A stretch of 64,000 nt of DNA from Alphaproteobacteria bacterium (GCA_964291215.2 OZ219790.1:960001-1024000), one strand, 5' to 3'; shown: positions 1,761 to 47,434, counted from the first letter of the stretch. A program made the numbers and translations. Notes: generated from the letters alone by a model not told the origin.

Positions 1761-2202
1761 GTGCCCGCGCGGAAATGACCGTTTTGGCTGAGATTCCGGC
1801 AAAATTTCTGGTTTGATCGCCCTTCCGGGTCCCGCTCCGTTTTCGGGGGGATTTCTGCTGATTCGCAGCGGTATCAGGGCTCTTCCAGCCGAGAAGCCGG
1901 ACGAGCGGCTCCGTTCCCGCTCCCGGCGGGTTTCGCGGGTGGGGTAGGGACGCCGCCGTCAGGCGGCGCGTTTTCGTCGTCGTCGGGCCCGTCTGTGCAA
2001 CAGCAGGCGGTGGACATTGAAGACGACCATGGACAGCGCCACCATCCGCGCAAAGCCGTCCGCCCCACAGGACCCGGTCCATGCCGCGTTGCTCAAGATT
2101 GTTGATCGCCGACTCCACGGCCGGATGCTGTCGGCGCATCTCCCGGAACGTCGGGTCAGCTTCCCGTTCCCGGTCCGCCCGACCAGGCTTTCCCTTCTTC
2201 GG
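1761..2202 (-). mobile_element. ISNCY (ISDol1-like) element, 3' remnant
   Basis: Reverse complement is near-identical to 30280-30713; end GTGCCCGCGCGGAAA; truncated next to the ISKra4 copy. Confidence 0.8.
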
Positions 2203-2227
2203 TAGCGCGTTGTGATCCCTTGTGATC

Positions 2228-3735
2228 GGGTGAGACTCTCGTATGGCACGGTTGCAGGCTCAGTACCACTTGTTCATCTCATGCGGCCAGTGCCGGGGTG
2301 TGATTTGGGCTGATGTTGTCGTTGGCCGGTGCGTCGTCTGCACCAATCATGGCCGTCCACGCGCTCTCGAAGCGGCCGGATTCGAGCAGGGCGCGGAAGG
2401 CGATTGTCCGCCGACGATGAGCCAGCGCATGCCGGAGCGTTTCATGCGCTGTGTGACAAGGGTCTTGTTTGCCGCCTCGACAATTCCCGAGCCGGTTGCT
2501 TCAGCGCGTGGTAGCGCATGCGGTGGCGATGCTTGCGAAAGAAGGACAGTTCCCTGTCGATGTCGGCCCGTTGGCGCCGCAGTGTCGCGAAGGTGGCGCA
2601 GCGCCCGGATCACCCTGTCGATGCCGCGGGGGTCGTGACGCAGGATCTCGCGGTACTTCTCGAACCAGTGGGGCACCGCTGCATGGTCGGCCGCCACGCG
2701 CAGATGCTCGCAGGCATACCTCGGTTTCGGGCTCAAGACCCCCGAGGAAGGTCCAGTTGTCGGCGGCGGCGTCGGCGATGGCGCTGATCTCGGGACGTCT
2801 CCGTTTGATATGCGCGACTTCGCTTGCGAGCTGCGCCTTCAGTGTGCACTTTCGGCCCTCGGGCATGCGGCCGAGACAGACGGTCTTCAGGCGCTCACCG
2901 TCGGCGTCGTGGAAGGAGACCGTGCCGCAGGCCGCCTCACGCCAGCAGGCCTCGGAACGGCCGTCCTCGCCGGCCCGCAGCGCCACCATGACGCCGTCCA
3001 GCGAGGCGGTGACCGCGTCCTGCGGGATGTCCTCCGCTTCCCGGATGTCATCCAGGGGGGCCGAGACTTTCCCGGCGCTCCTGCATGGTCAGGCGCTGCA
3101 AGGTGCTGGCGTCATGGCGCCGAGCTTGCCGAACAACGCCTCCGCTGCCGCCCATCATCATCAGCCCAAGCCGCCGGCCGTGTCAGCTAGTCGTCGACGA
3201 GGCTTTCGTCCACCGGCATCAGCGACCGGCAGCGCGCGCCGGTGCGGCACGCCGAAAGGTCACCGGGCGAGGTCATCATCGTCTTCGGCGCCCCATCTCT
3301 GCCCGTCCCGCTCGATCCGGAGCGCACCGTCGTCCCGGGCCTCGGCACCCGGGATCTCGCAGCGCGTACACGCTCTCACGCACCCGCCGCTCCGTTTCCT
3401 CAAAGGCCTCGGCAGAGCGCTGCGAACCGAGTTGCCGATGACAAACCGCGGTTATCTGCGTGACCGCCTCGACAACCCGAGGCGGCAAGCCGGAAATATC
3501 GATCGACGCGGAAGGCTGCGAAACTGACATGCGAGCGCTCCTGATGCTGTGGATTGTCACCAATATCATATCGCATCTTGCGGTGCAGAGCGTTCCCACC
3601 TCTACCGCTCGGCCCGTGACAAAATCCTGTCCTGAAACGGGCGATTGTCACGAAAACCCGTTTTTGCTGCTGCCTCGCGACCACATAACCGCGTTAAATC
3701 AATGGCTTGCATTCGCCATACGAGAACTGCACCCC
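2228..3735 (-). mobile_element. ISKra4-family IS, degenerate copy A
   Basis: Fragments SLDGVMV, ADAAADNW and GSGIVEAANKTLVTQRMKRSGMRW lie in different frames; imperfect IRs GGGTG...CTCGTATGGC; homologous to 45917-47434. Confidence 0.85.
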
Positions 3736-4475
3736 GGAGAGGCGGCGGAGATTCGCAACGCCGCCGTGAGCGGCGAGGTCGAGTGCCGCTGCCACGGGCG
3801 CAACTTCATGGTCGCGGAGATGCGGCTGCTGCGCGAACTGACGATCACGGAGCGGACCCCATCGCCCGCGCCTTCTGCCGCCGCCAGCCCCGAAGCTGAT
3901 CACGTCGGACACCAAGCCGCTGCTCGACGCCCCGAAGACCCTCGACGAGCTCCGCCCGCTGATACTACCTCGGATACACGCGCCTGGTCGGCGCGCAGAT
4001 GCGCTACGCGGTCCATGACCGGAACGGCGAGCCGCTGCTCGGCTTCTCGACCGCCGCATGGAGCGCGCGCTGCAACACCCCGCCCGTGCCCTGCAAGACC
4101 TTGGTCGAGGTCCCGCGCCATAGCGTCTGCAGGGCCGCGGGCCGGATCCGCGTCGGAACAACCAGCGGGCGCGGCCGCCACGACCGACATGACAGAAGCC
4201 GAAGAAGGACATCTGGCCCGCTCCGCAAGGACTGGAAGCAGACCCTTAATCGCTGAACCCTGCAACCGGCACAGGATGACGCTCAGCTCCTCCTCCGCAG
4301 CGCCGGGACAAAGCGCAACCAATGCGGAAAACACGGCATGGCGCCAGTGCCCGCCAACCTCACCGCGCATCCCGCCCAGCGGTGCACGAAACCGCTCCGG
4401 ATGACGCTGGAACTCCCTGACAAAAGCCCGTCAAACGGACGAAAACAACAACACCTCACCGCACGAACGAACGCT
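3736..4475 (+). mobile_element. Degenerate DUF4338-domain element with IS66-like end (GTAAGCGTTCGTTCGTGC on minus)
   Basis: MRYAVHDRNGEPLLGFSTAAW resembles DUF4338; the same terminus recurs at 9586 and 32279. Confidence 0.6.
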
Positions 4476-4480
4476 CCCCC

Positions 4481-5068
4481 TGCTGCAACCGGTTCAACCG
4501 CTGGCGCAAGAAGGGAGTCTGGGATCAATTGATGGATACGATAGTGGAGGCTCACGACGGCAATGTGCAGATGATCGATAGTTCGAGCGTCCGGATTCAC
4601 CAGCATGCGGCGGGATCAAAAAAGGGGGGGGCGGATCGTTGCATGGGCCGTTCCCGTGGCGGACTGACCACGAAGATCCACGCCGTGTCGGACGTTACCG
4701 GCCTGCCGGTCCGCTATGACCTCAGCCTCGGCCAAGCACATGACACCACGGCCGCCGGCGCCATGCTGGCGCCCCTGCCGCCCGACAGTTTCCTCGTCGC
4801 CGACAAGGCCTATGACGCCAAATGGATCCGTGACCTGATCGAACATCACAATGCCGTCCCGATCATCCCCGACCGAGAAGGCGCGAAGACCAGGCACGCC
4901 TTCTCCAAATCCTTGTATCGATTGCGAAACCGGATCGAACGCGCCTTCAACAAGCTCAAGCAGTTCCGACGCATCGCCACCCGCTACAAAAAGCTCGCTG
5001 CCAACCTCCTCGCCATGATCAAGATCGCCACTGTCAGGCTCTGGCTACGCGCTTATGAGTCCACGGCC
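4481..5068 (+). mobile_element. IS5-family (IS427-like) transposase, 5'-truncated but internally clean
   Basis: NRFNRW...IDSSSVRIHQHAAG..GRSRGGLTTKIH..ADKAYD..RNRIERAFNKLKQFRRIATRY; A/G run at ~4618-4631; end GAGTCCACGGCC. Confidence 0.9.
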
Positions 5069-7013: not shown

Positions 7014-7310
7014 CAGGTGTTTCCCACGCTGCATTCAATTTTGCTGTCTTCTGCTGTCCGGAGGTTTCACGGCGTGCCGGGTTTTCTGGCTTCGGGGCCG
7101 TCCGCGGTCGTCGCCGGCGGCGTTACCGGCGCGTGGGCGGGCTGTTTTCGGGATGTGGGCGGCGTCCGGGAATCGGCCGGACACCATTGGCGCTCAGGGC
7201 CGGGCTGCGACGGCTTCCCGGCGGTCGAGCCGCCGCCGTGTTTCGGCGAGGTTCTCGCGTCGGTTGGCGAAGATCACCGCGAGCGCGATGTTATCGAAGC
7301 TGGCGCGGTT
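7014..7310 (-). mobile_element. ISAs1-family element, 3' remnant
   Basis: Matches 38700-39003 reverse-complemented; end CAGGTGTTTCCCACGCTGCATTC. Confidence 0.8.
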
Positions 7311-7827
7311 GATTACGCAACCTGATGTCTGGAAATTGTCGTGAAGCTCTCAGTCATCGAGCTGTTCCCATTCGATCTTGGTTTCGGTTTCCCATTTTTC
7401 GTCGATGAGGACCGCGGTTGAGAGGCGCTCCAACGAGGCGAGGTTCGGAAAGACCCTGACTTTGGAGGTGCGCCGCTTGAGCTCTTGCTGGATCGGTCGC
7501 TCGATGCCGTTCGAGGTTCGCATACGCTTGTGGTGAGCATCGGGCAAGGTGAAGACAGCGAGCCCCGCATTCTTTTCCAGCCAGGAAGCCCGGATGCTTG
7601 TCGCGATAGCTGGCCACGAGGGCGCCCAGTTCAGCCTCGGCGGTTTGGAGTGAGGACGCATGGCTCCGAGCTGTTTTCCAATACGTTTCCTGATGTCGTT
7701 GTTCGGTGCACGGCGTTTTGCGCCAAGTGGAACTGGCAGCGCTGCCACGTCGCCGCGCCCAGCACCGCGCGTCGTGCCGCTTTCAGCCCGGCATCCGAGA
7801 CGATGAAGGTCGTACCATGTAGGGCTA
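7311..7827 (-). mobile_element. IS256-family element, 3' remnant
   Basis: Near-duplicate of 8181-8690; RTSNGIERPIQQELKRRTSKVRVFPN; cut at CTAG by IS5. Confidence 0.85.
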
Positions 7828-8180
7828 GGTTGTGGACTCAAATAATTGGTTTGCGATTCTGCGGAGCAAGAATCGGCTGGCAGCCAGTTGCACGGCGGAG
7901 AGGAAGTTCCTTGTCATAACGGGTGGCGACCCGTCGGAACTCCTTGATCTTACCGAAGAACCGCTCGACCAGGTTGCGCATCCTGTAGACCTCGCGGTCG
8001 AGCGGTCGTGGCAATGTCCGGTTGGATTTCATGACCGCGGTTGCTCCTGCTGTCTCGATTAGGTCGAGAATGGCGTCGGTGTCGTAGGCCTTGTCGCCGA
8101 CCACCGTCTCGCCATGCCCGAGGTCGGCGAGAAGCGCCTCCGCCTGCGCGCAGTCGGCCGCCTGGCCCGGGGTCAGGAAC
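7828..8180 (-). mobile_element. IS5-family remnant (degenerate)
   Basis: GDKAYDTDAI...RNLVERFFGKIKEFRRVATRYDK; end GGTTGTGGACTCA at CTAG. Confidence 0.85.
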
Positions 8181-9410
8181 GATTACGCAACCTGATGTCT
8201 GGAAATTGTCGTGAAGCTGATCGAGCTGTTCCCATTTGATCTTGGTTTCGGTTTTCCATTTTTCGTCGATGAGGACCGCGGTTGAGAGGCGCTCCAACGA
8301 GGCGAGGTTTGGAAAGACCCTGACTTTGGAGGTGCGCCGCTTGAGCTCTTGCTGGATCGGTCGCTCGATGCCGTTCGAGGTTCGCATACGTTTGTGGTGA
8401 GCATCGGGCAAGGTGAAGACAGCGAGCCCCGCATTCTTTTCCAGCCAGGAAGCCTGGATGCTTGTCGCGATAGCTGGCCACGAGGGCGCCCAGTTCAGCC
8501 TCGGCGGTTTGGAGTGAGGAGGCGTGGCTCTGAGCTGTTTTCCAATACGTTTCCTGATGTCGTTGTTCGGTGCACGGCGTTTTGCGCCAAGTGGAACTGG
8601 CAGCGCTGCCATGTCGCCGCGCCCAGCACCGCGCGTCGTGCCGCTTTCAGCCCGGCATCCGAGACGATGAAGGTCGTACCATGCAGGGCTAGCAAGCTTT
8701 CCAGGAAGGCTCTCCAATGGACCTCAGCCTCGGAGAGCGCCACAGAGAGCCCCAGAACGTGCCTGCAGCCCCTATTCCGATGGCCGAGAGCACTGCGACA
8801 TCGCGCACAACGCCGTCATGGCGGGCTTTTTCATAGCGCGCATCCAGGATCAGGTATTTCATCAGGGGCCGGTTGCGCGGCGAGTTCTTCGTCGAGCAAC
8901 CTGGTGGCCCCCTGAGAAGAGGACAGGCTCCCGAACTCGCGCATTACATCCTGCCGCGTGGAAACACCCTTGATGTACATCTCGGCTACGGCGCGAGAAG
9001 ATCGCTGGCCGCGTTCAAGCGACTGGGGGGGGGTCGTCCCCGTGACCGTTTGGCACCTGAACGGTAACAGTGGGGGTGTCGATCCGCTTGTAGCCGTTGG
9101 CCCTGTCGTTCCGGTGTCCGGTGGCCCGCTTTCAAGTGCTGCTCGCGCTCGATTTACATCGCAAGCTCGAAAAGCTGACCAAAGATCCGCCCCAGATCCG
9201 TTGCTCCGTTTGCGATCAGATGTTCCAAAACGGCCTCAATCGTCGTAGTGTGTCGCAGGTCCATTCGCTTCCTCCATGAATGTTTACAGCTCCATGGGAT
9301 AGCACGATGGCACCGCGTTTCACTGGGGGGGGGGGGGGCTAGCCCCCCCCCCCCCCAACGCCTCAAAGCGCAAACCTCAGACAAATTTCCAGACATCAAG
9401 TTACAGTACC
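8181..9410 (-). mobile_element. IS256-family IS, end-to-end but degenerate
   Basis: IRs GATTACGCAACCTGATGTCTGGAAATT / GGTACTGTAACTTGATGTCTGGAAATT; fragments EMYIKGVSTR, SEAEVHWRAFLESL, WQRCQFHLAQNA. Confidence 0.85.
9325..9356. repeat. Perfect palindrome G14-CTAG-C14 in the IS256 5' region
   Basis: Read directly from the sequence; the related copy at 21671-21690 has only G6. Confidence 0.9.
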
Positions 9411-9586
9411 ACCGCAAAAAACACCACCGCACACCAATGCGGAAAACACGGCATCGCGCCAGTGCCAGCCAACCTCACCGCGCATCCCGGCGCACGAAAC
9501 CGCTCCGGATGACGCTGGAACTCCCTGACAAAAGCCCTTCAAACGGACGAAAACAACAACACCTCACTGCACGAACGAACGCTTAC
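9411..9586 (+). mobile_element. Second remnant of the DUF4338/IS66-like element end
   Basis: Homologous to 4315-4475; ends GCACGAACGAACGCTTAC. Confidence 0.7.
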
Positions 9587-10711
9587 TAGTGTTATGTCAG
9601 CAATGATATGTCGTACATTTGGTGCTAGACTGTCCGTCCATTCGGGATGGAGGTCGGAGTATGAAACGCTACGTGGTGACCCTGGACGAACGGGCAGAAC
9701 TTTCGGAGATCAAGGGCTCGCATCTGTCGCAAAAGGTAATCAACGCCCTGCTCAACTGCGACGAGGGCGCGTTCAATGAATGCCAGATGACCGGGAAGGT
9801 CATTGCCGAGATTCTGCGCATCAGCATGCGCAAAGTAGACCGGGTGAAGAAGCGTTTCGAGGGGCTGGAGGCGGCATTGGGTGGCCGGCAAGGACGCCGT
9901 CCTACCTACATGCGAAAAGCCGACGGCACCTTCGAGGCGCGTGGCTCTGAGTTGTGGTGAACCGCCTGAGGGTTACGCGCAATGGTCGTTGCGGCTGCTG
10001 GCCGACCGCGTTGTTGAACTTGGTTACGCCGTGTCACACGAGACGGTGCGGCGTGTTCTAAAAAAACTGCCTCAAGCCATGGCAGCGGGTTGGGTGGGTG
10101 ATTCTTCCTCAAGGGAATGCCGACTTCGCCGCGGCGAAGGTGCTCGATGTCTATCGCCGTCCCGCCGCCTTCCCCGTGGTCTGCATGGACGAAACGCCCC
10201 CCGACCGGCGAGACACGGCAACCGATCGCCATGGCGCCGGGACGGTCAGCACGTAACGACTACGAGTATCGACGTTGCGGCACCTGCAACGTCTTCACGG
10301 AACCCCTGGCCGGCAAGCGCATGACCAAGGTAACCGAGCGCAAGATCGACTGGGCGCAGTTCCTGGCCGACATCGCCGGGCGCTACCAGAATGCTACCAC
10401 CATCACCCTAGTGATGGACAATCTCAACACTCCCCGGCGCCTTCTATGAGGCCTACCCGCCGGACGAGGCCTTGTGGGACCGCTTCGAGTTCGTCTACAC
10501 CCCCAAGCACGGCAGTTGGCTGAACGTGGTCGAACTCAACGTCATGATCCGCCTGAACCGCCGCATCGACTGCATCGAGGTGTTACGCCGGGAAGTTGCC
10601 GCCTGGCAGGCGACCGCATCCAGGCCAAGGTGGATTGGCAGTTCACCACCGACGATGCCCGTGTGAAACTCAAACATTTTTATCCGACATTTTATGAATG
10701 ACAAGACGCTA
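9587..10711 (+). mobile_element. IS630-family IS, degenerate
   Basis: TA-flanked IRs TAGTGTTATGTCA / TGACAAGACGCTA; MKRYVVTL, WSLRLLADRVVEL, LVMDNLNT, YTPKHGSWLN. Confidence 0.9.
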
Positions 10712-10890
10712 GTTATCAGTAGGACAACCGCTATACACGAAAATCTGCAGCTAACTCGTCTCGCCTCTGAAGCAAACGCCTTGCCTCGTGCATGAACTAC
10801 CAACACTCCGAGCAATACATCTTTGTCCACAACCGACAGACGCGCGAACTGTTCGGAACCTTCTACATGCTAGCGGTTGAAGTATTTGGC

Positions 10891-27428: not shown

Positions 27429-27577
27429 CGCGCTCTCTCCTCAACATATGGGTTTCCATCGCAGGGCCATGACGGCATTGCCTCGCCGAAAGGCCGGTTC
27501 CGCCCACCAAGCCGCCCACTCGCAGAACGCATCCTACCCGGCGCATCCGGCCGTTGCAACCGAATTCGGCCCGGTGG

Positions 27578-27754
27578 CACGGTGATCCCGCGCTGCTAAT
27601 CCGGCGACGACTGGCGAGATTTTCTCAGTTTGCGTCGCGCTGCAATCGTGCCGCCAAGGCTCGATGGGACCTTCTTGGCACGAAAATTGCGATCAAGGAG
27701 GCGATCTGTGATGAGCCGAGCCCCAACGCATTCGGATTTCGCGTCTCTGAATTA
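27578..27754 (+). mobile_element. ~190-bp MITE, copy 1 (right end clipped by ISNCY)
   Basis: Homologous to 34023-34215 (inverted) and 52899-53091. Confidence 0.85.
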
Positions 27755-28117
27755 GTGCCTGCGAAAAAAACATAAAATCGCTTGATTTTTTTGTAGAATC
27801 CTGATATAGAGGGGATGAAGAATCTCGCTTTGGGGTAGGAATTGGACGATCAGACCGGAAATCCACCGGATTTTCGGAAAACTTCGCGAGAATTGCCATG
27901 CGAAACGTTCCGCAGCTGGAATTGGGCCAGGTTGCGATCGAGAAGATCGATCTCAGCAAAGACTCGCGGGATGACATGCGCGGGATTCAGCACGTGTATG
28001 CCGACCCGGCTGTTCAAGATCCTGGAGGAGGGGACCCTTCCGAGAGTGTCCCACAGGAAAGCGCGTCCCGGCGTTGTGGAAGATTCTGGTGTCCTGAAGC
28101 AGAGCTTGGGGTATGAC

Positions 28118-29493
28118 CTTATATGACTAGGTTTTGTCCCCTTGATGATGAAATCATCCACAGCAGTTGGGGGCGGGAAAATGTGGATCTGTGGGAGAGC
28201 TATGGTTGCAGAGAGATTCCGCTCCCCTGAGCGAACACGCACAGGGGAGCGGGGATCAAACGATCTCCGCGGAGGTTGCCGTTTTGACCTTGACAGAGCC
28301 GCGACCGAGTGTGGTCGGCCAACCTCCCTTGACGTCCCTCGCTGGATGCTTGGGTTTGAACCCGTATCATCGTAAGGCGAGGAGCAAGGGACGATGGTCA
28401 AGATAGTAGCAGGGGTCAGCAAGGCCAGTCTGGACATCTGGCGCATTGTTTTGCGAACGACGCCACGGGCAGGTGGCTTCGCGGCCTCGGGGTGAGCCGG
28501 GTGGTGGGCGACAGGCCGCTATCACCGCAAGGTTCACCAGTGTCTTCATGACCGGGGCTTCGAGGTTATTCTCGTCAACCCGTTGCGGGCGCTTCGCCGA
28601 GGCGATGGGCCATCTGGCCAAAACCGACCGCGTCAACGCCAAGATCGGCTGGGCGATCTTGAGCCTGTGGCTCCGCCTTCCTCAAGAGCCTGGAGGATCT
28701 CTTGGTGCCGCGCTTGTCGACGCCAAGCAGGTGGCAGATGAGGTGGATGGCGAGACCGTCACAAGGGCCTCGGCGGCCGATCTCAATGATCGCATTGCCG
28801 GCGCGGCGATCAAAGCGGTGATCGCCGGTGATCCCGAGCAGAGGTACGCCATCCTGACCTCGATCCCCGGTCCGGTGACCGCCGCGGCCCTTCTGGATGC
28901 CCGAACTCGGCAGCGTCGGCAGCCTTGATCGGGGTGGCGCCGATGGCCAACGACCACGGTGCTCGGCACATCCGTGGCGGGCGCCGAAGGCCACGCGATC
29001 TCCTGGCCGCAACCGGCACGCTTCAACGCGAACCTGGTGCGCCTCAAGACTGCCGGCAAGGCCCACAAGGTCGCGATTGTCGCCGTGATGCGCAAGCTCT
29101 GGCGAACACCCTGCTGCGACAGCAGCGTTGCCTGAAGCACCGGTGAGTGAGCGAAGGAGACACGGCCCTCACCCCTGCCGAGAGCGCGATCGGGACTGTC
29201 TCGACAGTCTCCCTCTACGACACGACTTGGGGAGAATGTCTGCAGATCATCGTCGAGGCCGACATCGAGGAGACCGAACCGCCTTGGGACACCTGGAACC
29301 CAATTGACGACGGTCACGTGCCCGGGGACGGCAAGGTAGCCGCGTTCACGTGACCAATGGACGGCAACCCGCCGCCGGGACCACAAGCTTCATGTCGCCT
29401 CGCTCGCAGAGCAAACCCCACACCGCTTGTGGACAACCACAGAAAACATCACCGCAGACACCCGCAAAAACCTTGCCAAGAAACATGGATGCT
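28118..29493 (+). mobile_element. IS110-family element copy 1 (CT core, bridge-RNA left end, degenerate recombinase)
   Basis: Removal restores ISNCY codons GAC-CT|C-GAT (GYDLDHLHE); fragments VSKASLD, AKTDRVNAK, ILTSIPG, KVAIVAVMRKL. Confidence 0.85.
28250..28385 (+). ncRNA. Putative IS110 bridge RNA (target and donor binding loops)
   Basis: Two stem/internal-loop units; TTTGACCT matches the target flank, TGGATGCT matches the element right end, GTAAG is complementary to the left end. Boundaries approximate. Confidence 0.7.
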
Positions 29494-30727
29494 CGATCAT
29501 CTGCACGAACTGGTGAACGAGACGGTTCGCAAGTTCCTGGACCACGGCGATATCCGGGACAACACGAGGTACAGCTATCGGACGGTGCTGGAGAACGTGA
29601 GCCATCTGACGCCGGAAGTGCTGGAGAAGGTATCGCAGCTGGTGGCTGAGAGCGGCCATGCGATGGTCCGCAAGAGCAAGTCGGACGGGTCCTTTGCGGG
29701 GCCGCTGCGATTCGTTCGTGGTGCACTACCCGACGGACGTCAACCTGCTGTGGGATGCGATGCGTTGTCTGGTGCGCGGCCGTGTTCGCGGGGGTGGCGG
29801 CAGTGGCAGCATCGGAGTCGCGGGAAGCGCTTTCAGAAGGTTTCCGGCGGGCCTCTTCGGAGGATGGTACCTCGACGACAGCCGGGAGTTGGAGCGCAGG
29901 AGACGGTTTCGGCACTTGTGGAGAAGGGCGTCGGGGCCTCCAGGATTCACAAGATCCAATCGTATCTCAACCATGCCCGCCGGCAGATCGACCAAGTAGA
30001 CCGCCGCCTAAGGCGAGAAGATCCCGCAGGAAGAGAGGGTGTTTTCGATCTTCGAGGAGCGCTGGTGCGTGAAGGGCAAGTGCCGGTGGCCGTGCTGGAG
30101 GACCAGCACGGCTTCCTCCTGCACCACCGGATCCTGTGGGAGGGCAGTGACGTGGACCATGCGGTGCCCATGATCCAGGAAGCACAGGCTCGCTTCCCCG
30201 ATCTGCGCCTGTGCAGTTTCGATCGCGGGTTCCACAACCCCTCCAACCGGATTGCACTGGACGAGTTGCTGGACGCGCTGCCGAAGAAGGGAAAGCCTGG
30301 TCGGGCGGACCGGGAAGCTGAGACGACGTTCCGGGAGATGCGCCGACAGCATCCGGCCGTGGAGTCGGCGATCAATAATCTTGAGCAACGCGGCATGGAC
30401 CGGGTCCTGTGGGGCGGACGGCTTTGCGCGGATGGTGGCGCTGTCCATGGTGGCCTTCAATGTCCACCGCCTGCTGTTGCACGGACGGGCCCGACGACGA
30501 CGAAAACGCGCCGCCTGACGGCGGCGTCCCTCCACCCCACCCACCCGCCGGGAGCGGGAACGGAGCCGCTCGTCCGGCTTCTCGGCTGGAAGAGCCCTGA
30601 TACCGTCGCGAATCAGCAGGAATCCCCCCGAAAACGGAGCGGGACCCGGAAGGGCGATCAAACCAGAAATTTCGCCGGAATCTCAGCTAAAACGGTCATT
30701 TCCGCGCGGGCACGAATTACCAAAATA

Positions 30728-32228
30728 GTATCTACTCACCCCTTGTTGGGTTCTGATTGGCCATAGTGCTCGTTGATGATGTCTGCGGCTTTTCCGTCGA
30801 AGGCGATCTGGGTGGCGACGAGTGGGTTGTAGCCGAGTGCGGCCATGGAGGTGAGGTAGCTTGAGCCCCGGCACCATGCTTTTGCGTGGAGCGGAAGCAT
30901 CCGGACACCTTGACCTTTGCCATCCTGATCTTCTGTTCTCCGGCATTGTTGGTGAAGCTGACGTCGGGGTCGTCTGTGAAGCGCAGGTTTTCGTGTTTCA
31001 CGAGACGTTCGTGCAGGTTGTGCGCGTCGGACTTGCGTCCACGTTTTCCTTTCGGCGGCGGCGGGATGTCGGGCAGTTCCCTGGCGCCCTGATGGTGCGG
31101 TAGCGCTTGCGCCCGGCGTCGTTCAGGGTCTTGGATGCGCTCTTGTTGACCTTGTGGCAGACCTCGCGGAGCAGGCTCTTCATCAGTCGCGCGGTAGCCT
31201 CGACGACAAAGGTCAGTTCGCGCAGCAGGTGGCTGCCGCACAGCTGGTGGCTACACTGGCCCATGTACGAGGCCCAGGACGCCCTTGTAGCACGGGCCGA
31301 TCTCTTGCCCGCGCTTGCGGTGCGGGAACTTGCACGTCAGGGTCCCACGACATGGAGCCACTTGCTGTTGATCCGAAATCGTCGACATCGGGCGTTGCAG
31401 GAGGTGCGCCACGGCGGCCTCCTCCCATGACGCATCGTGAAAGCATAGCTGAGGCAGGTTGCCTCGGAGAGCTTGATGCCGGAGATCGCCTGCACGAGCG
31501 CGACGGCACGGCGCAGGGACAGCATCTGGGCGACCAGCAGGTTGATGACGAGGGCCTGGATGCCGTACTGCACGGGATGTTGTCGGGGAACCGGCCCCGG
31601 GCCTTGCACTTCGGGCATTCCTCGGCGCGGCGCTCGACGACCTCGAACACGATGTCGTGCGGCGCTCCCGATCGACGACGCCGTCGATGTCGGCGCCGCA
31701 GGCGTCGCAGGCCGCGACCGTCTCCTCGACGATGATCTTGCGCAGGTTGTCGCCCATCTGCTGGTTCGGCTTCGGGCCGTTGCTCCCGGCACGCTCTTGT
31801 CCGTCTGTGACGGCGGCAGACCGGAGTTCCGGCTCGTGCGTGGTCTTCTCCAGAAGGACGACGATGAGGATGTCGAGCAGGGTGACGAGGACGCGGATGA
31901 CGGCCTCTTCCGCCACCTTGCCGGCAGCGCCGCGGTCTTGGCCGCTTCGAACTCCTCGCGCGCCGCCCGTCGCCATCACCCGGCCTTGCGCTTCATCAGC
32001 GCGCCGTCTCCCGGATGCGTTTCCACATACAGATCATGCGGAGGCTGGAGCCCCGGAAGCAGCTGGCACAGCCTGCTCGTCGCCTTCGATCCAAAGTAGC
32101 ACACTGGCGGTCCTCGTCGTTTTCGATGACCACCACTAAGCGAATCGGCCTGCAATGTCAAATCTCCACGTAAACCCGTTCGTTACTCTACCCCGACATC
32201 AAGCCAGAACCAGGGGATGAGCAGTTAC
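30728..32228 (-). mobile_element. IS66-family copy 2
   Basis: Ends GTATCTACTCACCCC / GAGCAGTTAC; 8-bp TSD CCAAAATA. Confidence 0.92.
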
Positions 32229-35985: not shown

Positions 35986-38900
35986 CAGGTTGATCTTACG
36001 CTAAATTCTGTTTGATTTTTCAAGGCAGCACCTGGGTTTAGGGGGGCGAGGAGATTTTTTTACAGTTTTCGCTGGCTTTCCTGCACTGGAGTTGTCATGG
36101 TGCGGGGATGTCGGTTCACAAGCACATCGCGTCCTGTCCGATTCACGTCGCAGCTCCGGAAGGGTCTGTCCGAGCGTCCCCGGACATGGTAACGTGATCG
36201 TCGTCAATCGAGTTCCAGGTGTCCCGTCCACAAGCCGCGCGGCGTCTCCTCGATGTCGGCCTCGACGATGATCTGCAGACATTCTCCCCAAGCCGTGTCG
36301 TAGAGGGAGGCTGTCGAGACAGTTCCGATAGTGCTCCTGCACCGCACCGAGCCACCGCATCGCACCAGCGTTGCGCACGGGAACGATGGGGCTTTCGGTG
36401 GTGGAGGTGGGGGCCTTGCGGCGCGCGGCGCTGCCTCTCGGCAGGGCCGTGTCTCCTTCGCTCACTCACCGGTGCTTCAGGCAACGCTACTGTCGCAGCA
36501 AGGTGTTCGCCAGAGCTTGCGCATCACGGCGACGATTGCGACCTTGCTTGCCGGCAGTCTTGAGGCGCACCAGGTCCGCGTTGAAGCGTGCCGGTTGCGG
36601 CCAGGAGATCGCGTGGCCTTCGGCGCCCGCCACGGATGTGCCGAGCACCGTGGTCGTTGGCGCCACCCCGATCAAGGCTGCCGACGCTGCCGAGTTCGGG
36701 CATCCAGAAGGGCCGCGGCGGTCACCGGATCGAGGTCAGGATGGCGTAGCTCTGCTCGGGATCACCGGCGATCACCGCTTTGATCGCCGCACCGGCGATC
36801 ATCGAGATCGGCCGCCGAGGCCCTTGTGACGGTCTCGCCATCCACCTCATCTGCCACGCGTCGACAAGCGCGCCACCAGGAGATCCTCCAGGTTCTTGAG
36901 GAAGGCGGAGCCACAGGCTCACCGTGCCGATCTTGGCGTCGACGCGGTTGGCCCATCGCCTCGGCGAAGCGCCCGCAACGGGTTGACGAGGATAACCTCG
37001 AAGCTCCGGTCATGAAGACACTGGTGAACCTTGCGGTGATAGCGGCCTGTCGCCCACCACCCGGCTCACCCCGAGGCCACCTGCCCGCCAGCTCGTGGCG
37101 TCGTTCGCAAAACAATGCGCCAGATGTCCAGACTGGCTGACCCCTGCTACTAGCTTGACCATCGCTCCTCGCCTTGTGATGATACGGGTTCAAACCCAAG
37201 CATCCAGCGAGGGACGTCAAGGGAGGTTGCCAAACTCGGACGCGGCTCTGTCAAGGTCGAAACGGCAACCTCCGCGGAGATCGTTTGATCCCCTGTGCGT
37301 GTTCGCGCAGGGGAGCGGAATCTCTCTGCAACCATGGACCGGACGCTCTCCCACAGATCCACATTTTCCCGCCCCCAACCGCTGTGGATGATTTCATCAT
37401 CAAGGGGACAAAACCTTGTCATACAAGGTCGAGGTTCGCGAAGCCTGAGGAGCGTCCGCTGCGTTGATGGACGACTATCTCGGGTTTCGCCGTCTGGCGG
37501 GGCTGCGCCATGTTGCGTCCTTCAGGGGGCAGTGGTCTGGCCGGGTCCTTCAAGTGCCGCGACCGGTGGCTGGAAGCCGGAGCAGCAGTGGCTTGATCTG
37601 ACAACACGCGACTGCTTGCGGCGCCGGGAACGTTTCCGAACCTTGCCTCCTTCTTTCTTGCGACGCGGCGGCTGGCCGACGACTGGGCCTGCGGCCACCA
37701 GGTGGCGGAGACGTTCTGCGATCCGGCGTGTTTTGCGGGCACAAGGCGGCGGGCTGGAGTGCCAGGGGGGGTGCCCGTGCCAACGGGCGCTGCACCGACC
37801 CCCATGGCAAGGAGATTTTCGTTGTGCGGCGCGACGGTTGCTGTCGCAGGCGCTGCGGTGGTGCCGCCTGACTCCTCGCTCCCCGGGGTTCCGAGGTGAT
37901 GCGTTCGCTGCACGACGAGCTGGCGGCGATCGAGGACTTCCGCCGCGCAGGAAGCACACGGTGTGCTCACGTTCTCGCCGAGCTTGCGAACATGAAAGGC
38001 AGCTGCGCAGTTTGCGCGGTCGCTGTCCCGGGACGAGCTCGAGGCCATCGGCGGAACCCGAGGACGGGGTTGCGCGAGCCGCCCTCCAAGGCGACCCTCC
38101 ACCGGGCAGTCGATCGACCCCGAGGCGCTCGAGGACATGCTCGGGCGCCGGCTCGCCCGGGCACTTGCCGCCGACGGCAAGCGCATCCGCGGCGCCAACC
38201 GCAACGGCCGCCACGAGATCGTGGCCCTCACGCCTCCGGCGCACCCTTCGCGCCGTTGAACTTCGACGACGGCGAGCCGGCGGCCACCTCATCGAGCGCG
38301 CTGATATCCGCGGCAAGGTGATCACCCGCACGACGCCGGCGACGCTGATCACCCGGCGCTGCGGCGCAGACTATGTCTTCCCGGTCAAGGGCGCCCGAAA
38401 CCTTCGACGGCATCGACTGGGAGCCAGCGGTCGCTTCAAGGAGGCAAGGCCCGCCTCGAGCAGCGATCGATACGTGCCGCTCAAGGGCTTGATCAACCAC
38501 CCCGGCAGATCGCCCGCATCAAGCGCTGCCGCGAACCGCTGGGAAAGAGCGCCAGCGGCGCAGCGAGCGGCAACGACTGTACATCATCACCTCGCTCGAT
38601 GCGCAACACGCGTCGCCAGAGGAACTGCTGCGGCCGCGGGCCGTGGAAAACATGAACCACCGAGACTGCGTCTTCGGCGAAGACGCCTGCCTGACCCGCA
38701 AACCGCGCCAGCCTCAACAACATCGCGCTCGCGGTGATCTTCGCCAACCGACGCGAGAGCCTCGCCGAAACACGGCTGCAGCTCAACCACCGGGAAGCCG
38801 TCGCAGCCCTGAGCGCCAATGGTGTCCGGCCGATTCCCGGACGCCGCCCACATCCCGCCCACATCCCGAAAACAACCCGCCCACGCGCCGATAACGCCGC

Positions 38901-39003
38901 CGGCGACGACCGCGGACGGCTCCGAGGCCGGAAAACCCGGCACGCTGTGAAACCTCCGGACAGCGGAAGACAGCAAAATTGAATGCAGCGTGGGAAACAC
39001 CTG
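35986..39003 (+). mobile_element. ISAs1-family element with DUF4338 N-terminal region, degenerate, nested IS110
   Basis: Imperfect IRs CAGGT...ACGCT..ATTC; flanks CAGGCGAAG / CAGGCGAAAG; DGKRIRGA, ADYVFPVKG, VENMNHRDCVFGEDAC. Confidence 0.8.
36027..37427 (-). mobile_element. IS110-family element copy 2 (probably chimeric 3' end)
   Basis: Homologous to copy 1 over the left end and recombinase; CT core at 37426-37427; right end diverges. Confidence 0.8.
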
Positions 39004-39013
39004 CAGGCGAAAG

Positions 39014-39197
39014 CAGGACCATTCTGTTGTCGCGGTCGGCGGCGGACAACCGCGTCAGAGTGGCCGTTCTTGAAGTTGGTGGCACCGTCTCAAGGTCGGA
39101 ACCGGCATATCGACAACGAAATCCGCTCCCGAATGGACCTCCAGATCTGCCTACAACACTCCCTCGTCGGACGAAACCGGACAAAAGAAGAGCCCTG
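39014..39197. mobile_element. 184-bp ISAs1-type MITE
   Basis: Ends CAGGACCATTCTGTTGTC / GACAAAAGAAGAGCCCTG; perfect 10-bp TSD CAGGCGAAAG. Confidence 0.8.
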
Positions 39198-39215
39198 CAG
39201 GCGAAAGCCCGGTAT

Positions 39216-39255: not shown

Positions 39256-40875
39256 GTATCTACTCACCCCTAGTTGGGTTCTGATTGGTCGTAGTGCTCG
39301 TTGATGATGTCTGCGGCTTTTCCGTCGAGGGCGATCTGGGTTGCGACGTGATGATTGTAGCCGAGTGCGGCCATGGAGGTGAGGTAGCTTGAGCCCCGGC
39401 ACCATGCTTTTGCGTGGAGCGGAAGCATCCGGACACCTTGACCTTTGCCATCCTGATCTTCTGTTCTCCGGCATTGTTGGTGAAGCTGACATCGGGGTCG
39501 TCTGTGAAGCGCAGGTTTTCGTGTTTCACGAGACGTTCGTGCAGGTTGTGCGCGTTTGCGTCCACGTTTTCCTTTCGTCGGGATGTCGGGCAGTTCCTTG
39601 GCGCCCTGATGGTGCGGTAGCGCTTGCGCCCGGCGTCGTTCAGGGTCTTGGATGCGCTCTTGTTGACCTTGTGGCAGACCTCGCGGAGCAGGCTCTTCAT
39701 CAGTCGCGCGGTAGCCTCGACGACAAAGGTCAGTTCGCGCAGCAGGTGGCTACCGCACAGCTGGTGGCTACACTGGCCCATGTACGAGGCCCAGGACGCC
39801 CTTGTAACACGGGATGATGCCGATCTCTTGCCTCCCGGCCGCGCTTGCGGTGCGGGAACTTGCACGTCAGGGTCCCACGACATGGAGCCACTTGCTGTTG
39901 ATCCGAAATCGTCGACATCGGGCGTTGCAGGAGGTGCGCCACGGCGGCCTCCTCCCATGACGCATCGTGAAAGCATAGCCGAGGCAGGTTGCCTCGGAGA
40001 GCTTGATGCCGGAGATCGCCTGCACGAGCGCGACGGCGCAGGGACAGCATTTGGGCGACCAGCAGGTTGATGACGAGGGCCTGAATGCCGATGCCGTACT
40101 GCACGGGATGTTGTCGGGGAACCGGCCCTTGGTTCGGGCCTTGCACTTCGGGCATTCCTTGATCTCGACGCGGCGCTCGACGACCTCGAACACGATGTCG
40201 TGCGGCACTCCCGATCGACGGGGCCGTCGATGTCAGCGCCGCAGGCGTCGCAGGCCGCGACCGTCTCCTCGACGATAGTCTTGCGCAGGTTGTCGCCCAT
40301 CTGCCGGTTCGGCTTCGGGCCCTTGCCGTTGCTCCCGGCATGCTTCGCGCTCTCGTCCTTGTCCGTCTGTGACGACGGCAGACCGGAGTTCCGGCTCGTG
40401 CGTGGTCTTCTCCAGAAGGACGACGATGAGGATGTCGAGCAGGATGACGAAGACGCGGATCACGGCCTCTTCCGCCACCTTGCCGGCAGCGCCGCGATCC
40501 GGGTCTTGGCCGCTTCGAACTCCTCGCGCGCCGCGTTGACCGTCGCCATCACCCGGCCTCGACGGTCATGATCGTCGCAAGCATCGCTTGGCGCTCGCCC
40601 GGCGGCATCTTCCGGTACTCCGCCGCCCGGCCTTGCGCTTCATCAGCACGCCGCCTCCGAGATGCGTTTCCACATACAGATCATGCGGGGGCTGGAGCCC
40701 CGGAAGCAGCTGGCACAGCCCGCTCGTCGCCTTCGATCTAAAGTAGCCCACTGGCGATCCTCGTCGTTCTCGATTACCACCACTAAACGAATCGGCCTGC
40801 AGTGTCAAATCTCCACGAAAACCCGTTCATTACTCTACCCCGACATCAAGCCGAAACCAGAGGGTGAGCAGTTAC
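39256..40875 (-). mobile_element. IS66-family copy 3 (least deleted)
   Basis: Both ends present; 8-bp TSD AGTGATGG. Confidence 0.92.
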
Positions 40876-43163: not shown

Positions 43164-43779
43164 GTATCTACTCACCCCTAGTTGGGTTCTGATTGGTCGT
43201 AGTGCTCGTTGATGATGTCTGCGGCTTTTCCGTCGAGGGCGATCTGGGTGGCGACGTGATGATTGTAGCCGAGTGCGGCCATGGAGGTGAGGTAGCTTGA
43301 GCCCCGGCACCATGCTTTTGCGTGGAGCGGAAGCATCCGGACACCTTGACCTTTGCCATCCTGATCTTCTGTTCTCCGGCATTGTTGGTGAAGCTGACGT
43401 CGGGGTTGTCTATGAAGCGCAGGTTTTCGTGTTTCACGAGACGTTCGTGCAGGTTGTGCGCGTTTGCGATGCGTTTTCCTTTCGTCGGGATGTCAGGCAG
43501 TTCCTTGGCGCCCTGAGTGAGGGTGGTGCGGTAGCGCCCGGCCTCGTTCAGGGTCCTGGATGCGCTCTTGTTGACCTTGTGGCAGACCTCGCGGAGCAAG
43601 CTCTTCATCAGTCGCGCGGCAGCCTCGACGACGAAGGTCAGTTCGCGCAGCAGGTGGCTGCCGCACAACTGGTGGCTACACTGCCATGTACGAGGCCCAG
43701 GACGCCCTTGTAGCACGGGCCGATCTCTTGCCCGCGCTTGCGGTGCGGGAACTTGCACGTCCCGACGACATGGAGCCAC
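43164..43779 (-). mobile_element. IS66-family copy 4 (3' half only)
   Basis: Right end GTATCTACTCACCCC; fused without an IS end to the MmeI-like gene. Confidence 0.85.
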
Positions 43780-44524
43780 GCGCCAGGTCTTCGTCGAGCG
43801 TCGCCGCGCGCTCGTCCTCCGGCGTATCGAGCACCTCGAACAGTTGCGCGAGCCATGGCCCGAGATCGGCCCCGTTCTCGCCGGTGCGCGTTTCGATGAA
43901 GTCGAGAAAGATGTCGCGCGGCTCGAACACCCCGGTGTCGTCGGCGAACATGCAGAACACTACCCGCACGAGGAAGCGTTCCAGATCGTGCCCCTGGTGC
44001 CCGGCATCGGCGAGAGCATCGTGCAGCCGCCCGACCAGCTCGGCAGCTTCGATGTTCGCCGGGTCCTGGTCCCGGAACGTCCGGCGCTGCACGCCCAGGA
44101 TGAAGCCGAACGACTCGACATGCGCGGGCAGGTCCGCCAGCGGGAAGACAACGGTCTCCCGCTCGTCGAGATCATGAAGCTCGAAGGTCTGAAAGTCGCT
44201 CACCAGGATGAAGCGCGGGCGCTCGCGGTCCGGCAGCGCTTCGAAATACTCCCCGGCCTGTTCGTACGCCTTGCGGAGATCGCGCCCGGCGCTCTTCTGC
44301 TCGACGAGCAGCACGCCCGGCCAGAACAGGTCGATGAAGCCCGAACGGTTATCCAGCTTCGCGACATGCGCCTCGTAGCGGGCAACGTTACGCCGCCGCA
44401 CACCGAACACATCGAAGAAGGCGTTGTAGAAGCTCTGCGTCTCGCCCTTCTCATAGGCCGCATCGCACCACTCTTCGGCGAAGGCTGCCGCCCGCGCCCG
44501 CACCTCGTTCCACGACAGGCGCAT
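43780..44524 (-). pseudogene. Type IIL (MmeI-like) restriction-modification enzyme, N-terminal part only
   Basis: EKGETQSFYNAFF, GFIDLFWPGVLLVEQKS, FCMFADDTGVF; truncated before the MTase domain. Confidence 0.88.
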
Positions 44525-44561
44525 CAGTCAGACCCGACCGTACCGACGGCGGAAGCCTCGA

Positions 44562-44876
44562 TCATGCGTGCAGCGCACCCGCACGCCGTCCGGCGGCAAC
44601 CCGGTCCCGACGCGCCTGTGCAAGCTCGTAGCTCGCCTGCATCCGCATCCAGTGTTCGGCGGTTCCCCAGCCGATATCCTCCAGCGCCAGCGCCATGTAG
44701 GCCGACACCCCCGCCTTGCCGTTCAGCAAGCGCGACAGCGTTCCGCGCTCGCAGCCGAGCCGAGCCGCCGTCCCGATCACGTTCCAGCCCACATCGTCCA
44801 TGCTCTTGCGGATGAGTTCGCCTAGGTGCGGCGGGTTCAGCATCGGGCCGACGCGGTCTCCTGCAATATCGTTCAT
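44562..44876 (-). CDS. higA: HigA-family antitoxin
   Basis: NPPHLGELI, LSRLLNGKAGVS..MAL, WMRMQASYEL. Confidence 0.9.
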   Translation of the reverse strand: MNDIAGDRVGPMLNPPHLGELIRKSMDDVGWNVIGTAARLGCERGTLSRLLNGKAGVSAYMALALEDIGWGTAEHWMRMQASYELAQARRDRVAAGRRAGALHA

Positions 44877-45388: not shown

Positions 45389-45533
45389 GCAAGTGCGCGG
45401 CGGGCGCTGCCGCTCAAGCGCCGCCCGGGCTGTGAATGCCGATGGCACAACGGCTTGCATCGCCCGACGGGTAGAGCGGTCAGGAAGCACGATTGGAACG
45501 CCCTTCGGCGCGTCGGTTGTCACACCCGACGCA
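45389..45533 (-). repeat. ~140-bp conserved non-coding element, copy 2
   Basis: Diverged homologue of 10891-11030. Confidence 0.75.
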
Positions 45534-45600
45534 GCCGAGATGACGTCAGCCCTTGCCTGCTCCGCGCCACCTTCGAACACCTACCGCAGAGGACAGGAAC

Positions 45601-45852
45601 ATGGCTGAACCGACGGAAATCCAGGGTATCGGCGCGATGTCCTTCGAAGACGCGCTTGCCGAGCTTGAGGAAATCGTCACCGTCCTCGAAAGCGGCTCCG
45701 GCAAACTCGAGGAATCGATTGCAGCTTATGAGCGCGGCGCCCGCCTTAAGGCGCATTGCGAGGCACGGCTGAAGGCAGCGCAGCAGAGGGTCGAGAAAAT
45801 CTCGCTCGGCGCCGACGGCACCGTTTCCACCGAACCCATGAACGATGGGTGA
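45601..45852 (+). CDS. xseB: Exodeoxyribonuclease VII small subunit
   Basis: MSFEDALAELEEIV..LEESIAAYERG..HCEARL. Confidence 0.95.
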   Translation: MAEPTEIQGIGAMSFEDALAELEEIVTVLESGSGKLEESIAAYERGARLKAHCEARLKAAQQRVEKISLGADGTVSTEPMNDG

Positions 45853-45916
45853 CGCCACCGTTTCCGGACCGTCCCGGCGTACTCGAATTTTTTCTGCGCG
45901 GACGAACAGTCTCTGA

Positions 45917-47434
45917 GGGTGGGAGTTTCGTATGGCACAGTTGCAGGCTCAGTTCCATTTGTTCATCTCATGCGGCCAGTGCCGGGGGGTGATTGGGGCT
46001 GATGTTGTCGTTGGCCGGTGCGTCGTCTGCACCGAATCATGGCCGTCCACGCGCTCTCGAAGCGGTCGAGCAGGGCGCGGAAGGTGACTGTCCGCCGACG
46101 ATGCGCCGGCGCATGCCGGAGCGTTTCATGCGCTGTGTGACAAGGGTCTTGTTTGCCGCCTCGACAATTCCCGAGCCGGTTGCTTCAGCGCGTGGTAGCG
46201 CATGCGGTGGCGATGCTTGCGGAAGAAGGCCGGTTCCCTGTCGATGTTGGCGCCGCGGTGTCGCGAAGGTGGCGCAGCGCCCGGATCACCCTGTCGATGC
46301 CGCGGGGGTCGTGACGCAGGATCTCGCGGTACTTCTCGAACCAGTGGGGCAGTGCTGCATGGTCGGCCGCCACGCGCAGATGCTCGCAGGCATGCCAAAA
46401 GTCGATCACCTCGGTTTCGGGCTCGAGACCCCCGAGGAAGGTCCAGTTGTCGGCGGCGGCGACGATGGCGCTGATCTCGGGACGCCTCCGCCTGATATGC
46501 GCGACCTCGCTTGCGAGCTGCGCCTTCAGCGTGCACTTTCGGCCCTCGGGCATGCGGCCAAGACAGACGGTCTTCAGGCGCTCACCGTCGTGGAAGGAGA
46601 CCGTGCCACAGGCCGCCTCTCGCGCCAGCAGGCCTCGGAACGGCCGTCCTCGCCGGCCCGCAGCGCCACCATGACACCGTCCAGCGAGGCGGTGACCGCG
46701 TCCTGCGGGATGTCCTCCGCTTCCCGGATGTCGGGGCCGAGACTTTCCCGGCGCTCCTGCGCATGGTCAGGCGCTGCAAGGTGCTCACAGACGGCGTCAT
46801 GGCGCCGAGCTTGCCGAAGAACGCCTCCGCTGCCGCCCATCATCATCAGCCCAAGCCGCCGGCCGTGTCAGCTAGTCGTCGACGAGGCTTTCGTCCACCG
46901 GCATCAGCGACCGGCAGCGCGCGCCGGTGCGGTAGCGCGCACGCCGAAAGGTCACCGGGCGAGGTCATCATCGTCTTCGGCGCCACACGGAACCATCTCT
47001 GCCCGTCCCGCTCGATCCGGGGCGCACCGTCGTCCCGGGCCTCGGCACCCGGGATCTCGCAGCGCGTACACGCTCTCACGCACCCGTCGCTCCGTTTCCT
47101 CAAAGGCCTCGGCAGAGCGCTGCGAACCGAGTTGCTGATGACAAACTGCGGTTATCTGCGTGACCGCCTCGACAACCCGAGGCGGCAAGCCGGAAATATC
47201 GATCGACGCGGAAGGCTGCGAAACTGACATGCGAGCGCTCCTGATGCTGTGGATTGTCACCGATATCATCTCGCATCTTGCGGTGCAGAGCGTTCCCACC
47301 TCCACCGCTCGGCCCGTGACAAAATCCTGTCCTGAAACGGGCGATCGTCACGAAAATCCGTTTTCGCCGCTGCCTTGCAACCACACAACCGTGTTAAGTC
47401 AATGACTTGCATTCGCCATATGAAAACTGCCCCC
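45917..47434 (-). mobile_element. ISKra4-family IS, degenerate copy B
   Basis: Homologous to 2228-3735; flanks GTCTCTGA / GTATCTGA (8-bp TSD, 1 mismatch). Confidence 0.88.

Follow-up and report, generated by a model that had tools for sequence, protein, structure and literature searches.

Probable deletion-biased gene conversion among insertion sequence copies in an alphaproteobacterial genome

We analysed a stretch of 64,000 nucleotides (hereafter the window) from an Alphaproteobacteria bacterium (GCA_964291215.2 OZ219790.1:960001-1024000, which is C1:960001-1024000 of the genome called G000 here), in which copies of many insertion sequence (IS) families carry dense short deletions. These deletions are shared with exact ends among the copies of a family, and those of 5–7 bp stand at high frequency. 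We consider it probable that deletion-biased gene conversion between IS copies drives these deletions upwards; their far higher frequency than that of substitutions likely exists because conversion strongly favours the deleted form. An original prediction, made from the sequence alone, had described multicopy elements as shredded and unique DNA as spared. That observation is real, strong and odd, and was largely right.

The G000 genome comprises 6.15 Mb in 2 contigs (64% GC, 99.3% complete), of which 34% consists of repeats. Its aroC gene has its relatives among the Alphaproteobacteria. A draft sister genome, G001, has 92% identity and a divergence from G000 of 0.14 at 4-fold sites. Its core genes are colinear with those of G000, and their alignments (88–93% identity, few gaps) agree with the earlier statement that core genes are intact. 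All of the window insertions are missing from G001, and thus the IS expansion postdates the split between the two genomes. The outgroup, G294, is a genome from another family and one of 2 among 300 class genomes that hold related elements. References were built for 20 repeat families, 18 of which were refilled by adding minority segments found in up to 30 copies per family, and every copy covering at least 60% of its element was aligned to the refilled reference. One young family, L, is included in the pooled counts of 856 and 942 sites and in the frequency-matched linkage comparison and the fits for longer deletions, and is left out of the frequency spectrum, the gradient and the 729-copy totals.

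Sharing, frequency and homology dependence of the deletions

Across 729 IS copies, there are 15,219 deletions of 5–9 bp and 21,356 substitutions, or 0.7 deletions per substitution, with 5–19 deletions per kb depending on the family. The claim of dense deletions with few substitutions holds for the window itself, where 12 copies spanning 18.4 kb carry 229 deletions of 5–9 bp and 338 substitutions. All six deletions that had been named are present, at 2718, 3108 and 3293 in ISKra4 copy A, at 46066 and 46586 in ISKra4 copy B, and at 31559 in IS66 copy 2. Families have lost 6–16% of their length. Every copy of all 17 shredded families has frameshifting deletions, and refilling the gaps lengthens the longest frame from 209 to 412 amino acids in family B and from 270 to 588 amino acids in family D.

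Instead of the range of 2–14 bp initially described, deletion sizes peak at 5–7 bp and dip at 2–4 bp. Those with a frequency of at least 0.25 number 10, 8, 2, 5, 103, 207, 134, 27 and 10 for sizes of 1–9 bp, and the corresponding singletons number 112, 19, 24, 20, 54, 71, 49, 20 and 16. A small bump at 11–14 bp fits two adjacent events. At 942 sites, 61% of junctions have 0–1 bp of microhomology (60% for common deletions) and 21% have at least 3 bp, versus 8% for random positions. Because most junctions have so little microhomology, microhomology-mediated (alternative) end-joining was rejected as the main source of the deletions, and may supply a minority of them. Loss of one repeat unit, which had also been noted, does occur but is rare (12 of 320 gaps of 5–7 bp). 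Tests for motifs, hairpins and GC content at the junctions revealed nothing strong.

Nearly every window deletion of 5–14 bp (256 of 258) recurs exactly in another copy, and 78% of 856 deletion sites are shared between copies. Single alleles reach 62 of 86 copies and 69 of 174 copies, the latter being the deletion at 31559 within IS66 family A. Repeated cutting would hardly be able to place the very same junction, without microhomology to guide it, in dozens of copies. Indeed, the proposal that each copy is cut and then repaired by end-joining conflicts with junctions that are identical in many copies, with the predominance of 0–1 bp of microhomology, and with the fact that no bursts of deletions were seen in individual copies.

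The copies are mosaics that no tree explains. All four combinations are present for 46–67% of deletion-site pairs, however far apart the sites lie. Substitutions matched for frequency are about as shuffled (excess r2 of 0.14 versus 0.08), being near linkage equilibrium in families A, B, C, E, M and Y, and extra linkage is limited to sites within about 30 bp of each other. A reading in which only deletions are shuffled fell once frequencies were matched. This joint shuffling, with linkage confined to about 30 bp, indicates that short-tract exchange between copies mixes substitutions and deletions alike, and the mosaic pattern points to recombination. Copies lying within 60 kb of each other are not clearly more alike, except in family D.

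The outgroup establishes polarity. G294 carries the undeleted form at 103 of 103 sites that vary in family A, 28 of 28 in family E and 49 of 51 in family S, and the variable sites are therefore deletions. Furthermore, some segments of 5–7 bp are present in G294 yet missing from the reconstructions (5 in family A, 1 in E and 13 in S), whereas gaps of at least 5 bp in the opposite direction number 0 in A and 3 in S. These outgroup-only segments are deletions that reached all sampled copies.

Deletions of 5–7 bp also stand at unusually high frequency. Of 522 that are not singletons, 56% occur in more than half of the copies, compared with a neutral expectation of 21%, and the proportion is 44% for the 72 that were checked against the outgroup. 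Outgroup-polarized substitutions exceed this frequency at 8% of 261 sites in family A and 25% of 113 in family E, and deletions of 2–4 bp (24% of 33) show no excess; the test covered deletions of 2 bp and longer. The fitted scaled bias is 20–100 for deletions of 5–7 bp and about 0 for those of 2–4 bp and for substitutions, with likelihoods that overstate certainty because the sites have a common history. Positive values were likewise fitted for longer deletions, so the bias begins at 5 bp, whereas the supply of deletions peaks at 5–7 bp. The neutral behaviour of substitutions in the same elements also disposes of the earlier suggestion that the shredded elements are simply older.

Such frequencies could also reflect selection for copies with broken or shorter transposase genes, and with repeats making up so much of the genome, active elements could be costly. 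We regard this as very unlikely. In-frame deletions of 6 bp reach high frequency as often as frameshifting ones of 5 or 7 bp (54% and 58%), which argues against selection on the protein, and frameshifting deletions of 2 or 4 bp do not rise. In addition, copies gain 10–35 deletions long after the first break.

Several patterns support the conclusion that the deletion load depends on homologous partners. In 11 families, deletions per copy-kb climb 16-fold from the element end (12–60 bp) to the interior (>450 bp) through values of 1.0, 4.7, 8.1, 11.6, 15.1 and 16.0, and distinct deletion sites are also fewer toward the ends. Shared substitutions run from 169 to 93 per kb along the same path, and the ends are AT-richer, which confounds the gradient. 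Miniature repeats have next to no shared 5–7-bp sites (two in the 193-bp repeat with 107 copies and zero in the 184-bp repeat with 46 copies). Diverged copies outside the pool stay clean, and in families K and M, copies with more private substitutions have fewer shared deletions (rho of −0.65 and −0.55).

Regressing indel density on copy number, as had been suggested, gives a positive relationship: the pairwise deletion ratio has a rho of 0.50 over 18 families (P = 0.035), or 0.67 without family N. The large G000 families have 0.14–0.68 gaps per mismatch and family L has 0.07. Low-copy bins lie at 0.037–0.063, a figure that mixes dead elements with working duplicates and from which heavily gapped pairs below 82% identity were dropped. 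The load does rise with copy number as proposed, but mainly through the spread of deletions rather than their making.

Three fragments had been put forward as clean single-copy controls. They are indeed clean in the window, but they are not single-copy. A truncated IS5 (4479..5068, plus strand) is 6% diverged from three near-identical full copies elsewhere and carries 34 private changes and zero deletions of 5–9 bp, where about 2 would be expected at the supply rate and more than 20 at the family rate. An IS4 fragment (20713..21611, plus strand) is clean compared with two shredded paralogues. An MmeI-like N-terminal fragment (43780..44806, minus strand) has 2 further copies and shows 48 substitutions and no gap relative to its paralogue.

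Supply of deletions and competing explanations

Deletions were said to be restricted to repeats. Instead, the same size class occurs in unique DNA at a density roughly 60-fold lower. A comparison of 878 kb of unique DNA, drawn from 1.16 Mb of the roughly 5.0 Mb of G001, shows that G000 lacks 191 segments of 5–9 bp and G001 lacks 43; tandem units account for just 16 of the 191. This corresponds to about 0.2 deletions per kb; the value of 0.22 per kb for 138 ‘disrupted’ unique genes is rough and includes gene-calling errors. Among intact unique genes (588 kb), in-frame gaps of 6 bp number 30 in G000 versus 2 in the sister genome, and those of 3 bp number 8 versus 6. Non-coding unique DNA has at most 92 gaps in 93 kb, with 10,436 mismatches over both lineages, giving a supply of at most 0.018 per lineage substitution. 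Deletions in unique DNA lie no closer to IS elements than substitutions do.

Private events inside IS copies amount to 0.055 deletions per substitution (183 of 3,307, in 710 copies). Private deletions follow private substitutions at 0.05–0.08 in every bin. The realized family load of 0.7 is ten to forty times these two supply rates. Among singleton substitutions, the GC-to-AT bias is an ordinary 74%.

In other genomes, from which 9–34 copies were sampled, the ratios are lower. The G294 copies have 0.012 (34 ISNCY copies) and 0.005 (11 IS66 copies) gaps per mismatch, and two families of genome G004 have 0.022 and 0.054 with no clear peak. One family of genome G002 has a ratio of 0.062, with 8, 16 and 4 deletions of 5, 6 and 7 bp and 64% of pairs in all four combinations. 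To judge from these sequence comparisons, the shredding appears to be lineage-specific.

It is conceivable that alleles of different copies were mixed up during assembly or polishing, the errors being confined to interiors that reads with a unique anchor do not reach. The end gradient flattens at 300–450 bp, resembling a short-read insert size, and the comparison with a run covered a single haplotype with several deletions, with no read spanning a whole copy. That haplotype supports the assembly. A 127-bp contig of run X11, a possible source sample, matches window positions 3057-3183 letter for letter across two deletion junctions of ISKra4 copy A. The assembly contains this sequence a single time, and at two of its sites, 42 bp apart, each of the four combinations is found among paralogues. 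The ratio of contig depth to unique depth is 2.64, compared with 2.52 from 31-mer multiplicity in the assembly, and a second piece gives 6.37 versus 6.58.

Furthermore, runs contain four deletion alleles that 28–34 assembly paralogues carry at identical positions. Mixing cannot create deletion sites, and these too become fewer toward element ends. The excess of 6-bp over 3-bp gaps in unique intact genes of this lineage only, and the same peak and mosaic in G002, also speak against an artefact. Read support covers one stretch, and a consensus artefact, which the original prediction had listed as an alternative, does not explain the load; we give this explanation very little credence.

A further alternative is that founder elements passed through an old deletion-rich episode, after which dead copies multiplied in trans and unbiased conversion shuffled the alleles. 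It would account for old alleles being the common ones and for the lack of any copy in the 17 families that is free of frameshifting deletions. An excess of singleton substitutions (56%) indicates that the families are off equilibrium, as such a history would have it. However, the expansion came after the split from G001, since when non-coding unique DNA has gained so few gaps relative to the IS copies, and substitutions of the same elements are not at high frequency. An old episode also does not predict the end gradient and must have struck 17 unrelated families alike. We judge this history improbable.

Several observations weigh against deletion-biased gene conversion as set out here. A conversion event was never seen directly, and its direction comes from spectra with non-independent sites. 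A flank-sharing clade test for direction gave no polarity, preferred insertion sites being a confounder. Deletion carriers hold 62% of total diversity at 3–6 bp from the site and 85% far away, indicating less hitch-hiking than for substitutions. The sharp drop beyond 7 bp is unexplained by mismatch repair. We found no gene that separates G000 from G294, and the latter has RecA and at least 34 related copies without shredding. Family N, with only 14 copies, has 29 deletion sites and 56 substitution sites, and three elements with 2–3 copies are lopsided in their short gaps (34 versus 5, 2 versus 13 and 3 versus 20). Finally, singleton deletions per singleton substitution amount to 0.05–0.09 in interiors and 0.014–0.033 near ends. 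Family N and the lopsided elements need larger, now vanished pools, and the making of deletions may also depend on pairing. The lopsided elements (L167/L168, L171/L172 and L173/L174) are a group II intron, an ISNCY and an IS91-like element, of which L172 passes the ISNCY cut-off.

The higher interior rate of singleton deletions would be expected if pairing itself triggers new 5–7-bp deletions, through an RIP-like (repeat-induced point mutation) cut by a nuclease, with ordinary or biased conversion then spreading them. The narrow size, the interior excess of singleton deletions per substitution over element ends and unique DNA, family N and the lopsided elements all favour such a trigger, as does the overlap of deletion sites at 1.4 times the random value (467 versus 326 of 942). 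We nonetheless think it unlikely. Private deletions track private substitutions, and there is no burst, junction motif or hairpin. No polymorphism peak was seen at deletion centres, and several overlapping ‘alleles’ differ only through one neighbouring substitution. Proteins that might act in this way, and spacers matching the repeats, were also not found, as follows.

The original prediction had named an Argonaute with Ku and LigD as one candidate. In the 99%-complete genome, we found no Piwi domain, Ku or ATP-dependent ligase. Piwi was matched in 0 of 5 genus genomes, with matches in 2 of 14 control genomes, although very divergent short Argonautes could escape this search; Ku was found in 0 of 5 genomes and ATP-dependent ligase in 0 of 6. 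Argonaute cutting followed by Ku/LigD end-joining was rejected on these grounds and because junctions are shared rather than private. Likewise, NucS, RecT and endonuclease VII were not found in G000, and EndoMS/NucS mismatch cleavage was rejected given the lack of a nucS match and the fact that diversity at deletion centres is not raised.

CRISPR-based self-targeting was rejected because none of the 111 spacers has a genomic match beyond the two arrays; matches of 13–17 bp to the reconstructions are at chance level. The arrays lie at C1:574232-581236 (95 spacers of 36–38 bp) and C2:2068463-2069591 (16 spacers of 30 bp), next to cas1 genes, for which the genome has two loci. The suspected loss of mutS and mutL did not occur, both genes being intact. 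G000 has open frames for MutS, MutL, RecA, an AddA-like helicase-nuclease, RecJ, XseA, UvrD and RecQ, and also for PolA, RuvABC, RecG, DnaQ and UvrA. RecC, MutH, SbcB and SbcC had no match in G000, and no SbcD was found above the cut-off.

Deletion-biased gene conversion could operate in four steps. The lineage makes 5–7-bp deletions genome-wide at a low rate of about 0.02–0.055 per substitution, and copies swap short tracts that mix substitutions with deletions, as the mosaic pattern shows. In a pairing of a copy that has the deletion with one that lacks it, the surplus bases would loop out. MutS/MutL would handle loops of 1–4 nt without bias, and loops of at least 5 nt would largely escape, to be excised and sealed, such that the deletion wins whichever strand has the loop. 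Deletions then climb through the family, as the frequency pattern shows, and the outgroup comparison indicates that some reach all sampled copies.

A bolder extension is that the genus has a homology-dependent anti-repeat system, in which a nuclease acting on paired copies both makes 5–7-bp deletions and excises loops of at least 5 nt. This is a speculative and rather doubtful proposal. If true, repeats longer than a few hundred bases would be driven to family extinction by a deletion-based counterpart of RIP that uses no guide RNA, Argonaute or Ku.

Elements of the window and accompanying observations

Profiles confirmed the family names given earlier (IS66, IS256, IS630, ISNCY, IS5, IS4, ISKra4, IS110, ISAs1 and MmeI), with IS66 confirmed through an intact outgroup copy; the IS630 elements belong to two families rather than one. 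Profile scans gave no IS family assignment for families Y and N.

The first element is an ISNCY fragment of family S (1755..2210, minus strand; 94% to the copy at 29492-30719). It is followed by ISKra4 copy A (2228..3734, minus strand; family G, 9 near-full copies), which has 13 deletions, 12 of them shared, and 30 substitutions. The 3′ part of a family Y element (22 near-full copies) lies at 3733..4475. Beyond the IS5 control lie an end fragment of the ISAs1-like family X (7014..7310), a partial IS256 of family B (7311..7828, minus strand), a partial IS5 of family T (7825..8180, minus strand; 13 near-full copies) and an IS256 of family B (8181..9410, minus strand; 86 near-full copies) with 22 deletions and 20 substitutions. 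The two IS630 families are represented by a family F element (9586..10712, plus strand; 41 copies; 14 deletions, 30 substitutions) and a family E element (21687..22904, plus strand; 57 copies; 18 deletions, 25 substitutions).

IS66 family A has 174 near-full copies. In the window these are copy 1 (22901..24412; 27 deletions, 22 substitutions), copy 2 (30728..32228; 31 deletions, 26 substitutions), copy 3 (39256..40875; 24 deletions, 29 substitutions) and the partial copy 4 (43164..43779), all on the minus strand. The group II intron family D (56 copies, with reverse-transcriptase matches) occupies one fixed site within family A, and an insert of 66–74 bp in copy 3 (window 40560-40625) lies at this site.

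Between copies 1 and 3 are IS110 copy 1 (28117..29498; family H1, 58 copies; 35 deletions, 15 substitutions), a family S ISNCY (29492..30719, plus strand; 10 near-full copies; 15 deletions, 24 substitutions), IS110 copy 2 (36209..37428; inserted in family X; 36 deletions, 35 substitutions) and an ISAs1-like family X element (37427..39003; 26 copies; 28 deletions, 48 substitutions). IS110 of family H1 inserts at a single position of the ISAs1-like families X and R, the window case being 36209-37428 (L107). Similarly, the 2.1-kb family N, of which there are 14 copies, is linked to a single site of IS256 family B. The last of the elements, ISKra4 copy B (45917..47434, minus strand), has 11 deletions and 34 substitutions.

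Two miniature repeats are also present. The 193-bp repeat (family P) lies at 27575..27755, 34023-34218 and 52898-53093 and has few 5–7-bp deletions, and the 184-bp repeat (family Q) lies at 39013..39198 and has zero such deletions in all copies. Family L (L177) is a young IS66 family of 12 copies that are about 99% alike, and its transposase was over the family cut-off in the scanned copy. Its copies have 46 substitutions and zero deletions of 5–9 bp, and its reconstruction wrongly took in inserts from two diverged copies. Family L is a natural starting point of the deletion process.

G294 shares IS66, IS630, ISNCY and the 193-bp miniature repeat (93–94% identical) with G000, which points to exchange between distant lineages. 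The IS5 of 4479-5068 has 4–5 assembly copies, yet contigs at 30–170 times unique depth occur in runs X11 and X13; this element is abundant in other DNA of those samples. A unique island of lower GC content at 5070-7040, missing in G001, has frames of 263 and 252 amino acids without a Pfam or NCBIfam match, and run X12 contains a diverged version of it. The region 25059-27428 encodes a calcium-binding (RTX-type) repeat protein of 789 amino acids that has related copies elsewhere and falls under all family cut-offs. Related strains were seen in runs X12 and X13. The only hint of a habitat comes from a single metagenome run of a sponge (X1), which contains a relative that is about 95% similar.

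Implications and known systems

Deletion bias and IS decay in bacteria are usually read as mutation and drift acting on single copies. If instead one deletion can spread family-wide, large families would decay fastest, which could end IS blooms and speed genome reduction. Trees and ages of IS elements will be wrong when they are inferred from copies of this kind. Because the onset at 5 nt is sharp, genomes can also serve to test the poorly defined loop-repair pathway of bacteria: they offer about 850 natural sites and, as a clean control, a genome whose related elements are not shredded.

In fungi, RIP introduces new C-to-T changes in each repeat copy, degrading repeats above a few hundred bases and largely sparing unique DNA. 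Its recognition step is recombination-independent and involves the RID/DIM-2 methyltransferase. The outcome here is the same, except that existing deletions are copied and substitutions look neutral. RIP-like C-to-T dominance was rejected given the 0.7 deletions per substitution over 729 copies and the ordinary GC-to-AT bias. In Wolbachia, gene conversion reportedly occurs among non-functional IS copies, to go by the title of Cordaux's 2009 report; conversion among dead copies is common to both cases, and there it is said to maintain copies whereas here it appears to erode them.

Bacterial pseudogenes, as described in the part of PMC6054270 drawn on here, accumulate small deletions that follow a power law with an excess of 3n sizes. 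They resemble the present case in deletion bias and in partial microhomology without Ku/LigD, but here the numbers of 5-bp and 7-bp deletions come close to that of 6-bp ones, and deletions of 3 bp are rare. Bacterial mismatch repair is good for loops of up to about 4 nt and poorer at 5–8 nt, according to the corresponding part of PMC2504288, which places the repair boundary at 4/5 nt, as here, and reports loop-directed removal in yeast extracts. That part of the paper describes the bacterial loop-removal proteins as unidentified and reports no family-wide drive.

The closest parallel is the deletion-biased conversion between paralogues in flies and primates, where deletions outnumber insertions about 3.4 to one (PMC3280953). 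There, deletions are copied more often than insertions, a bias that in primates increases with indel length, and neutral paralogues become shorter in concert; the families studied here appear to behave likewise. The present case differs in that it concerns a bacterium and families of 9–174 copies rather than pairs, has no bias at 2–4 bp and a supply peak at 5–7 bp, and involves a loss of 6–16% of element length. No bacterial case with this size window was found in the literature searched, whose scope excluded most subscription papers and supplements. Deletion-biased conversion itself is known from flies and primates.

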